This document shows positions 49,017-50,099 of a DNA stretch of 64,000 nt, piece after piece. The position numbers and the translations under genes were made by a program. Below the pieces are notes generated by a model. The model did not search any database. It worked only from the letters and a program-made list of their open reading frames with translations, and was not told the DNA's origin. Source of the stretch: Candidatus Moraniibacteriota bacterium (GTDB lineage: Bacteria; Patescibacteriota; Minisyncoccia; Moranbacterales; UBA1568); contig CP064989.1 of assembly GCA_016699875.1 (NCBI GenBank), positions 520,788 to 584,787 on the forward strand, in the 5' to 3' direction. Numbering within the stretch: the first letter of the stretch is position 1; each line of letters opens with the position of its first letter.

Positions 49017-49623
49017 GCCCCAGCCTACCGCGATTTCCCACAAGAATCAAGGACTCCAAAGAAAATAAAAAGCCCCTGGAATAGTTATTATCCACAGGGG
49101 CTAAATTTTTTTCAAGAATTTTCCAAGAAAAAGAAATTTAAAAGAAAAACAAACACCCTCACACCTTCATAGGCAATACTCATCCTCCTTTTTTAGGTTT
49201 GGACTGAGAAAAACCCGCATAACGCGCCAAAGCGTTGTTGCAAGCGACTCGCATTCTTCATTACGCGGTCGCAAGCGTTATGCGGATCACGTACTCTGCC
49301 GCCTCGAGCCGTGGAGGACTAGCCTCCGATGAAGCGGCGAGTAAGGTTACGCCTCACCGAGCGCGGAAGTTATTGTCCGCGGCGACTCGGTAAGAGCCGC
49401 GCTACATGTGCTGCTCCTAACATTTTGCGCGCGAGGGCTACTAGCCACTCGGTTAGGTTACAGAGCACACACAACAACACACAACAATAGGGCTGGAAAC
49501 CACCACTTATGCAAGGACAAATCCCTGCTTCAGCAAATGGCGCAGCCCTTTCTTTCGGACTTACAGCCAGCTAGCAGAGAGGGTATCACGAACCCTCTCA
49601 CCTCCCGCTAAGGGGCTAGGTTA

Positions 49624-49794
49624 CTAGCAGCCGACGATGCCCAGGCCCAGGCCGGCACCACCGCTGACGTTGCCGTTGGTCATCATACTCATATCCAGAG
49701 TGGCAGCGCCGGGATTGGGCCGGTAGAAGGCGCTGGCGGTGGTAGCGCTCACGAAAGAGATTCCTTCATTGTTCAGGTGCTCCTGATTCTTCAT
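49624..49794 (-). CDS. 56-aa Gly-rich, Cys-terminated small peptide (candidate precursor/secreted peptide)
   Basis: My own translation (below 60-aa cutoff of ORF track): MKNQEHLNNEGISFVSATTASAFYRPNPGAATLDMSMMTNGNVSGGAGLGLGIVGC, tandem TAG-TAA stops; GAGGAGGA SD 6 nt upstream; TTGACA-like -35 about 130 nt upstream. Confidence 0.45.
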   Translation of the reverse strand: MKNQEHLNNEGISFVSATTASAFYRPNPGAATLDMSMMTNGNVSGGAGLGLGIVGC

Positions 49795-50099
49795 GGCATA
49801 TCCTCCTCGAGGTTTGCCTTGGCGTTTTGACCCAAGGTCCCTAGAAAAACCAGGACCAAGAGCCAGCGTGTCGAGCGGAAAATCAACTCAATATTGAGCA
49901 AGTTAGCATACCCTTGAAATCTTGTCAAGGGCACTCGAGAGTATATCGTGAATTGTCGCTCTATACAAGCAAAAAGTGGCATTTTTCTTCTTCAGAATTT
50001 CAAGATCGCGATACAAGAGAGAAAAATGCACAAGGACAAACCTCTGAAAAAATAAGCGGGATATTTCTATGGAAAATACGCTCTGAGAAAAGCTCCGAG

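Follow-up and report, generated by a model that had tools for sequence, protein, structure and literature searches.

A small reading frame joined to a four-domain structured RNA between glmS and gmk in a Moraniibacteriota lineage

Between the genes glmS and gmk of a Candidatus Moraniibacteriota bacterium, a member of the Candidate Phyla Radiation (CPR), lies a real, previously undescribed and narrowly distributed unit, composed of a small open reading frame (ORF) and a structured RNA. It was found in a window of 64,000 nucleotides (nt) of contig CP064989.1 (assembly GCA_016699875.1, positions 520,788 to 584,787), and all coordinates given here are positions in that window. Its minus-strand segment 49931-49058 reads as one transcription unit, with a predicted promoter, a 5' leader, the ORF, an RNA of four domains (P1-P4) and terminator hairpins. 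We think it somewhat more likely than not that this is a lineage-restricted, independently transcribed Moraniibacteriota gene, the transcript of which would be both a message and a structured RNA, either dual-function or cis-acting.

According to this reading, a highly conserved promoter of the sigma-70 type would drive a transcript of ~690-830 nt that opens with a three-hairpin 5' leader, the last hairpin of which would mask the Shine-Dalgarno (SD) sequence. The following ORF of 56-69 codons would be translated into a disordered and rapidly evolving small protein, the four-domain RNA of ~290 nt would extend from the stop codon onward, and variable hairpins and intrinsic terminators would then insulate the unit from gmk. 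Since the stop codon lies inside P1, a terminating ribosome would have to melt the base of that helix, and translation would in this way be coupled to the folding of the 3' domain. This domain would appear to be the main selected function of the unit, and it may serve either as the RNA part of a dual-function RNA or in cis, by determining how stable this messenger RNA (mRNA) is or how it is translated. A bolder proposal, that P1-P4 represent a new class of functional RNA (regulatory, ligand-binding or protein-scaffolding) fused to a translated small ORF, with its folding gated by ribosome termination in P1, seems to us credible but doubtful.

Six Variants of the Unit

When one genome for each GTDB species was scanned with gmk as the anchor, 65 loci were obtained, and among these only L001 carried a homolog of 49040-49960 (gmk 89% identical; nhmmer E = 5e-62). 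Further variants were obtained by profile searches of 5.8 billion proteins, by HMMER run in full on 1.84 billion representatives and by one DNA-pattern scan of metagenomes. In total there are six distinct sequence variants, which share 68-81% identity across the unit: that of the window (W), L074 (also L073-82), L083, L066/L067, L072, and L001 (also L068-70). A covariance model of P2-P4 (R1), which matches the window at 49340-49550 (-) with 192 bits, was run over 409 kb of Moraniibacteriota gmk loci together with the window, and its matches were confined to the six known variants. So far the unit is confined to these six; the four public records among them with a name at phylum level we take, from those names, to be Moraniibacteriota.

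A Fold Conserved on One Strand

An initial annotation, made from the letters of the window alone, had called the DNA downstream of the ORF conspicuously GC-rich and had suggested a structured RNA rather than spacer DNA. The G+C content of the structured region (55.8%) is indeed above that of the window (48.7%), but the excess is mild, as the neighboring gmk, glmS, tilS and ftsH have 50-55%. The suggestion of structure was borne out: a conserved fold lies downstream of the ORF, on the same strand, and the region is neither spacer nor a decayed gene. The minus strand of 49060-49640 folds with a predicted energy of -232.3 kcal/mol (z = -7.1), a value that 0 of 100 shuffles match, whereas the plus strand gives a weaker -191.5 (z = -4.9); the counterpart in L001 reaches z = -7.8. 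The four-domain RNA occupies ~290 nt (49632-49349, minus strand), starts at the stop codon and has the same layout in independent minimum free energy (MFE) folds of the six variants. Its predicted parts are as follows.

49564-49632, minus strand: P1, a hairpin with the last codons and the UAG stop in its basal helix (isolated-segment MFE in six of six variants)
49550-49563, minus strand: purine-rich, single-stranded joiner between P1 and P2, UAAGUCCGAAAGAA, in relatives GAAAGGAAGG (unpaired in the predicted folds)
49489-49549, minus strand: P2, a long hairpin AGGGCUG...CAGCCCU with apical stem GCAGGG/CCUUGC (identity 0.79)
49406-49482, minus strand: P3, in which a UG-rich 5' strand pairs with GGAGCAGCACAU (same architecture in MFE folds of six of six variants)
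49349-49403, minus strand: P4, a long hairpin CUUACCGAGUCGCCGCGGA...UUCCGCGCUCGGUGAGG (identity 0.79)

At the base of P1, GCUAG(U/C) pairs with a downstream GCUAGC, so placed that the stop codon and the last codons fall within the basal helix in every variant; above it stands an inner hairpin (GAGAGGGU/ACCCUCUC) whose stem varies yet still pairs, as GGGGAAC/GUUCCCC in L001 and as GGGGGA/UCUCCC in L074. The joiner motif GAAAG(R)AAGGG is kept in all six variants. In P2 (mean pairwise identity 0.79) helices 1-4 pair in 96-100% of cases, with exchanges among G-C, G-U and A-U and one double change, and in P4 helices 8 and 9 pair in 97-98%, with eight pairs varied on one side and one on both. In P3, compensatory double changes are found at three pairs of P3a and five pairs of P3b. 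The latter, CCUAAC/GUUAGG in one version, also exists as CCCAUAC/GUAUGGG and as UCUGUGC/GUACAGG, three mutually compensated forms, and the apical part of P3 (CGAG-GGC/GCC-CUCG) carries a 10-nt 3' bulge. Several of the sequence features singled out in the initial annotation find their place in this fold: the inverted repeat ccgagcgcgg...ccgcggcgactcgg is the apex of helix P4, and the CA-repeat tract (49466-49485) is, on the RNA strand, the UG-rich 5' strand of helix P3. Its three aggttac motifs are present as three copies, but GUAACCU is only partly kept in the relatives and there is no conserved repeat.

The statistics of covariation were taken from a model-based alignment of P2-P4 in the six variants, compared with 500 shuffles. 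Standard pairs fill 97.5% of the cells, against 92.8 +/- 0.8 in the shuffled alignments (reached by 0/500), and ten pairs have changed on both sides, against a shuffle mean of 4.9 (reached by 1/500); the covariation score is 0.294 versus 0.202 for the shuffled sets, and again 0/500 reach it. When the pairing partners are slid along as a control, pairing falls to 38-50%. The sense strand pairs in 95.5% of cells and the antisense in 84%, and it is the G-U pairs (46 cells) that fix the minus, or sense, strand as that of the RNA. It is on this strand alone that the predicted fold has been kept across the six variants, with compensatory changes. Ranked by mean identity in the alignments, the promoter (0.99) stands first, followed by P2 and P4 (0.79 each) and by the ORF (0.55), so that constraint is stronger on P2 and P4 than on the peptide.

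The Small ORF and Its Peptide

The 56-codon minus-strand ORF with a strong SD that the initial annotation had described is present as stated, and NCBI lists its exact product as protein IPK84_02895, on a contig of 1.09 Mb.

49624-49794, minus strand: small ORF of 56 codons plus TAG, MKNQEHLNNEGISFVSATTASAFYRPNPGAATLDMSMMTNGNVSGGAGLGLGIVGC, open in six of six variants

The SD, GAGGAGGA, lies at 49808-49801. The tandem stop (TAG TAA) that was said to terminate the ORF does so in the window, but only in the window's variant. Among the six variants the ORF ranges from 56 to 69 amino acids (aa), begins with ATG or GTG and keeps its SD (GGAGG). Its own frame contains zero stops in all six, while the other two frames contain 4-6 and 1-3. 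With an aligner blind to frame, 86 of 133 gaps in the ORF (65%) have lengths that are multiples of three, compared with 32 of 174 (18%) in the RNA core, and the G+C content at third codon positions (GC3) is 0.77, raised relative to the first and second positions (GC1 and GC2) and to the GC3 of 0.48-0.58 in neighboring genes. Such a pattern shows selection for the ORF to stay open, and supports its being a real, maintained coding frame.

What has been maintained is the frame more than the exact peptide. The ratio of nonsynonymous to synonymous change (dN/dS) is 0.7-1.4 for the ORF as compared with 0.08 for gmk at the same divergence (48% of the gmk synonymous sites differ between W and L001), and the mean pairwise nucleotide identity of the ORF among the variants is 0.55, a divergence of ~45%. 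The check for conservation of the peptide in relatives had thus a divided answer: the ORF is kept in the five further variants, though its sequence is weakly constrained. Conservation is limited to short patches: MK(K)YLNN at the N-terminus, AASAF(C/Y)RP in the center, NG(N/D), and an AGL tail at the C-terminus. An AlphaFold2 model of the peptide has no secondary structure (predicted local distance difference test score, pLDDT, 56; predicted template modeling score, pTM, 0.12). An extension by stop-codon read-through was also considered and rejected, as the downstream frame is not conserved and that of L072 is shifted relative to the others.

Some of the patches may owe their conservation to something other than protein sequence. 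The central patch is GCC-rich and the C-terminal one GGC-rich, each is the other's best duplex partner, and in W a change of UGC to UAC (Cys to Tyr) co-occurs with one of GGC to GGU; it is suggestive only, on this evidence, that part of the apparent peptide conservation reflects RNA pairing inside the ORF. The mutually pairing GC-rich patches with their paired change, a dN/dS near 1 and the lack of a fold in the AlphaFold2 model are what a purely non-coding RNA might display, with a frame that is open by accident or has no role but to bring ribosomes onto the RNA. We regard this explanation as quite improbable, for the frame is open in six variants despite ~45% nucleotide divergence, the bias toward indels of three is seen only within the ORF, the SD and the start codon are conserved, and GC3 is raised over GC1 and GC2.

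The initial annotation had seen in the peptide a leader-like N-terminus, an internal GG and a short Gly/Leu-rich core ending in Cys, and had compared it to double-glycine bacteriocins, to ribosomally synthesized and post-translationally modified peptides (RiPPs) and to lipid-modified peptides. One can accordingly imagine a secreted peptide precursor (a double-glycine bacteriocin, a RiPP or a pheromone), with AGL...GC as the mature product and an RNA that merely stabilizes the message as a 3' untranslated region (UTR). The division into leader and core fits, with N-terminal and central parts that are conserved, then a Gly/Ser/Asn linker that varies, then a hydrophobic C-terminus that is again conserved; secreted or antagonistic peptides often have a high dN/dS; the peptide is predicted to be disordered; and the endings IVGC, IIGC and AIGC recall a lipobox or the C-termini of RiPPs of the aminovinylcysteine (AviCys) type. 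These endings do fit the lipobox [LVI][ASTVI][GAS]C, but the Cys is the last residue and two variants have none; no N-terminal hydrophobic region precedes it, as a lipoprotein signal requires, nor is there in the peptide any hydrophobic stretch beyond about 10 residues. Only in four of the six variants does the AGL tail continue to an I/V-G-C end, the terminal Cys being missing in the other two, and the residues immediately before the tail are SGG, GGG, GGG, FAG, FAG and LDF, which makes GG present in three of six. Because neither the GG nor the terminal Cys is conserved, the bacteriocin/RiPP comparison is left unsupported.

Nor did database searches lend it help. Against Pfam at E <= 10 the six peptides matched 0 families, and against NCBIfam at E <= 10 nothing relevant and no precursor model, the sole listed match (0.07, for P0006) being irrelevant. 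No RiPP maturase, ABC (ATP-binding cassette) transporter with C39 peptidase, YcaO, radical SAM (S-adenosylmethionine) or LanD protein, or rhomboid/CAAX protease was present among 30 scanned ORFs of the window, which proved to be housekeeping or unannotated; the scan covered roughly half of the ORFs of >= 90 aa in the window, those outside it being mostly short and in the first 36 kb. On homologous contigs of 10 kb the only called genes around the unit with recognizable domains are PNPase, glmS, gmk, tilS and ftsH, none of them for processing or export. A secreted precursor would, moreover, account neither for the higher conservation of P2 and P4 relative to the peptide nor for the covariation of P3, and we judge it unlikely.

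Predicted Promoter and 5' Leader

Upstream of the ORF two further predicted parts of the transcription unit were identified, the leader hairpins by per-sequence MFE folding and by RNAalifold in five variants.

49900-49931, minus strand: promoter (read from the sequence)
49795-49893, minus strand: 5' leader of ~100 nt with three conserved hairpins
49891-49871, minus strand: leader hairpin Ha (MFE/RNAalifold)
49864-49829, minus strand: leader hairpin Hb, with a conserved tandem U.U internal loop
49818-49795, minus strand: leader hairpin Hc, in which CCUC pairs with the SD GGAGG (SD at 49808-49801) just before the AUG

The candidate promoter has a -35 element TTGACA (49928-49923), a 17-nt spacer and an extended -10 element TGC-TAACTT (49908-49900). 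The initial annotation had placed a TTGACA-like -35 about 130 nt upstream of the peptide start and had deduced a structured leader; the element lies 129-134 nt before the ATG, and the same three hairpins were recovered in five variants. With a mean identity of 99% across the five variants that cover it, the promoter block is the best-conserved segment of the locus. A consensus scanner missed it because the -10 element matches the consensus at only three of six positions. Transcription would start near the 5' end of the leader, in which the pairing of Hb is kept through change (GAUCC/GGAUC to GGUCC/GGACC among variants).

A perfect 7-bp inverted repeat, CCCTTGA-N7-TCAAGGG (49931-49911, minus strand), encloses the -35 element and is invariant in the five covering variants; it could be a repressor operator. 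Neither the promoter block nor this repeat has a second copy in the window.

The 3' Tail, the Candidate Terminators and the Start of gmk

Beyond P4 the transcript would end in a variable tail, which exists in two forms. That of W is common to L074, and L067 agrees with it as far as its contig goes; the other form is that of L001, L072 and L083. In the window the region between P4 and gmk contains the following candidate elements.

49298-49338, minus strand: H5, tail hairpin GCCGC...GGAGGCUAGUCCUCC...GCGGC, in the MFE fold, within the variable part of the transcript
49206-49285, minus strand: T1, hairpin of 71 nt on a GC-rich base of 11 bp, CCGCAUAACGC/GCGUUAUGCGG, with GUUUUUCUC after it (read from the sequence)
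49112-49190, minus strand: 23-codon ORF MSIAYEGVRVFVFLLNFFFLENS with an abutting AAGGAGG, between the two terminator-like hairpins
49058-49103, minus strand: T2, terminator hairpin AGCCCCUG...CAGGGGCU with UUUUUAUUUUCUUU after it, close to gmk on its upstream side (read from the sequence and the fold)
49017-49051, minus strand: conserved block CTTGATTCTTGTGGGAAATCGCGGTAGGCTGGGGC, ahead of the gmk ATG and almost unchanged among W, L001, L072 and L074

The G+C-rich hairpin and U tract of an intrinsic terminator are found in both predicted sites, T1 and T2, with analogous elements in L001, L072 and L074; indeed, each of the four variants that reach gmk (W, L074, L072 and L001) has a different strong hairpin and U tract before that gene. 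T1 is a probable terminator-like site and 3' end of the main transcript, and by inspection of the alignment it is ~90% identical in L074; a simple terminator scanner failed to detect it because of its loop limit of 8 nt. The inverted repeat ccgcataacgc/gcgttatgcgg of the initial annotation exists, with arms at 49215-49225 and 49275-49285, one to three bases from where it had been placed. Of the 23-codon ORF the first eight codons are kept in L074 (with a GTG start and a synonymous change of ATT to ATC), while the rest diverges and the length is 21-23 codons; its coding status is doubtful because the spacing from SD to start is ~0 nt, which is abnormal. L074 has ~280 nt extra between its second terminator and gmk (1050-1270), with a promoter-like TATAAT site and hairpins that are absent from the window.

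The block next to gmk contains TTGATT-17-TAGGCT, a possible promoter of gmk itself, or else encodes a TTG-started N-terminal extension of gmk. It is absent from 16 other gmk loci in which the upstream sequence was read, and most of the loci without the block have rpsA before gmk. The ATG of gmk is ~6 nt past the candidate -10 element, which would leave the gmk mRNA leaderless; gene callers start gmk at a TTG inside the block, for a product of 196 aa rather than 187 aa. Taken together, the hairpins with U tracts and the conserved block suggest insulation of the unit from gmk rather than a leader shared with it, with probable termination at T1 and T2.

A shared leader is a rival reading. The unit directly precedes gmk and points the same way, its stop codon falls within P1, terminator-like hairpins stand between the RNA and gmk in every variant, and the promoter is the best-conserved segment; these features would suit a long regulatory leader of gmk-tilS-ftsH, in which translation of the ORF remodels P1-P4 and so controls read-through of T1/T2 (attenuation). 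However, the 200-500 nt from P4 to gmk come in two divergent forms with no conserved alternative of terminator and antiterminator, the TTGATT-17-TAGGCT block past T2 could be the promoter of gmk, and the ORF, longer than leader peptides tend to be, contains no conserved run of regulatory codons. In addition, most other Moraniibacteriota loci lack the unit and have gmk right after rpsA, several of them with a terminator hairpin in between. Attenuation of gmk has, in our estimation, a low probability, because the tails diverge into two forms and gmk appears to have a promoter to itself.

Searches for Known Elements

Rfam 15, the families of which include RNase P, transfer-messenger RNA (tmRNA), 6S, OLE, ROOL, GOLLD, raiA, the T-box, riboswitches and ribozymes, gave no match in 49200-49900 at the gathering threshold. 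This is the covariance search that the initial annotation had proposed, and the structured region matches no known family. With the threshold relaxed to E <= 10 there was nothing in the structured core (49200-49620); the only matches inside 49200-49900 were two chance matches to C/D-box small nucleolar RNAs at 49747-49798, within the ORF, with 12-17 bits against cutoffs of 38-40, and the others fell in the AT-rich flanks. The five homologous loci had no match at E <= 1, and ARAGORN found neither a transfer RNA (tRNA) nor a tmRNA at the unit. A scan of the plus strand for promoters returned a single weak site (49922-49949) and no evident promoter of an antisense RNA. Pairing of the RNA with the 5' region of glmS in the manner of GlmZ was tried and set aside, since the duplex predictions were dominated by loops, had no conserved seed and were uninformative. 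Searches of the literature on structured RNAs or small proteins of the CPR turned up nothing relevant.

Could the interval instead be spacer with no function, or the remains of a gene that decayed when rearrangement brought glmS next to gmk? That rpsA rather than glmS precedes gmk in ~30 related genomes tells us that the locus was rearranged. A decayed rpsA is rejected, as an intact copy exists at 23649-24809 and tblastn finds no trace of it in 49100-49950, and so is any other decayed gene, as Pfam at E <= 10 matches none of the six ORFs (33-67 aa) contained in 49167-49611. Conservation above that of synonymous sites, covarying helices and a conserved promoter contradict this explanation, and we consider it extremely improbable. 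A repeat or mobile element was likewise rejected: the region occurs once in the window and has no DNA similarity to collections of phages and plasmids.

Distribution and Genomic Context

In the window the gap between the end of glmS (50100) and the start of gmk (49016 for ATG, 49043 for TTG) is ~1.06-1.08 kb and has no long ORF, in agreement with the ~1.1 kb first reported. The flanking genes are all on the minus strand, and the small unit, oriented like gmk, is immediately upstream of it.

50100-51968, minus strand: glmS
48453-49016/49043, minus strand: gmk
47477-48595, minus strand: tilS
45485-47356, minus strand: ftsH

All five of the further variants, from metagenomes and genomes, sit between glmS and gmk, and wherever the contig is long enough the order of genes is glmS, unit, gmk, tilS, ftsH. 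At ~30 other Moraniibacteriota loci (among L002-L036) rpsA, which encodes ribosomal protein S1, is directly upstream of gmk; in the window rpsA (23412-24812, plus strand) is 25 kb from gmk, which is preceded by glmS and the unit instead. The placing of glmS and the unit before gmk, instead of rpsA, is a lineage-specific rearrangement.

One pair of sequences is mosaic. Between L068 and L072 identity is 97-100% over the stretch that starts with P4 and takes in gmk, tilS and ftsH, but only 60-80% upstream (ORF and glmS). The region of the breakpoint, 5263-5460 of L068 (compared with L072; reverse strand), corresponds to about 49410-49350 of the window, and the step in identity indicates either a recombination breakpoint or a chimeric join of a metagenome assembly, which would lie inside the RNA between P3 and P4. 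A hypervariable peptide cassette between identical flanks was ruled out for this pair, as glmS is as divergent as the ORF region. A metagenome pattern match, L071, was discarded as a chance match in unrelated high-GC DNA, and a pattern scan of viral contigs found nothing.

Elsewhere in the window there are thirteen tRNA genes in 64 kb, with a cluster of five at 30852-32385 (plus strand), pairs at 35723-35890 (plus strand) and 39379-39576 (minus strand), and others at 3095, 10805, 11228 and 44371. Pfam (E <= 0.001 or 1e-5) gave no match for four ORFs of 295-502 aa, namely 43183-44301 (plus), 44458-45372 (minus), 54702-56210 (plus) and 13329-14216 (minus), and the ORF 42001-43056, which adjoins Pfam-less ORFs, has only a bacterial TSP3 repeat.

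Weighing the Favored Reading

A number of considerations weigh against a gene that is both message and structured RNA. The variants are only six, related to one another and partly mosaic. The alignment used for covariation was fitted to the model, which favors structure, and with four sequences in a plain MAFFT alignment the covariation is not significant (74/500 shuffles). On the side of the peptide, a dN/dS near neutral means that it may have little sequence-specific function, and the mutual complementarity of the GCC (Ala) and GGC (Gly) codons means that part of its conservation could be RNA pairing. The promoter, the start of transcription, the terminators and the translation are all inferred from sequence, and the RNA may or may not act in trans.

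The closest analogs of the favored arrangement are the dual-function (coding) small RNAs (sRNAs), such as RNAIII/hld of Staphylococcus aureus, SR1/SR1P of Bacillus, SgrS/SgrT of E. coli and Pel/sagA of Streptococcus. Like them, the unit would make one transcript of several hundred nt from its own predicted promoter to its own predicted terminator. Its short ORF lies toward the 5' end, and its multi-hairpin RNA has a conservation separate from that of the peptide and is at least as constrained. Unlike them, it has no Rfam similarity and no identified seed for pairing with a target, trans action is only a possibility, and its ORF is longer (56-69 codons) with the stop codon built into the first RNA helix.

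A second comparison is with the large orphan structured RNAs of bacteria, OLE, ROOL, GOLLD, raiA and others discovered by comparative genomics. The unit resembles these in being multi-domain, covarying, G+C-enriched, intergenic and from an uncultured lineage, but it matches none of them even at E <= 10, is smaller (~290 nt), has six variants and is fused to an ORF that is predicted to be translated. As in hok, the structured mRNA of a type I toxin, the message is highly folded, its SD is predicted to be sequestered and its ORF is short; in contrast to hok and to type I toxin-antitoxin systems in general, the peptide has no hydrophobic helix of transmembrane length, there is no evident antisense promoter and the structure is 3' of the ORF. 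With the precursors of double-glycine bacteriocins and RiPPs the unit shares a small Gly-rich peptide, an N-terminal part that is more conserved and a short hydrophobic end terminated by Cys, but it differs from precursors of the double-glycine, NHLP and Nif11 types in that its GG is not conserved, its Cys is not universal, no hidden Markov model (HMM) of Pfam or NCBIfam matches it and no gene for processing or export was found among the neighboring ORFs scanned. From leader-peptide attenuators it is set apart by two divergent terminator-proximal tails, with no conserved codon run and no antiterminator alternative found.

Significance

The CPR, or Patescibacteria, have tiny genomes, and their regulatory RNA and small proteins are little characterized. 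A conserved and insulated unit that matches no family points to a lineage-specific function, kept under strong genome reduction. If the RNA acts only in cis, as a 3' UTR, it would still be unusually elaborate for bacteria, with a stop codon embedded in the structure. If, on the other hand, it acts beyond its own message, the unit would represent both a new dual-function RNA and a new family of structured RNA, and a tractable one, with ~290 nt, four hairpin domains and a defined promoter.

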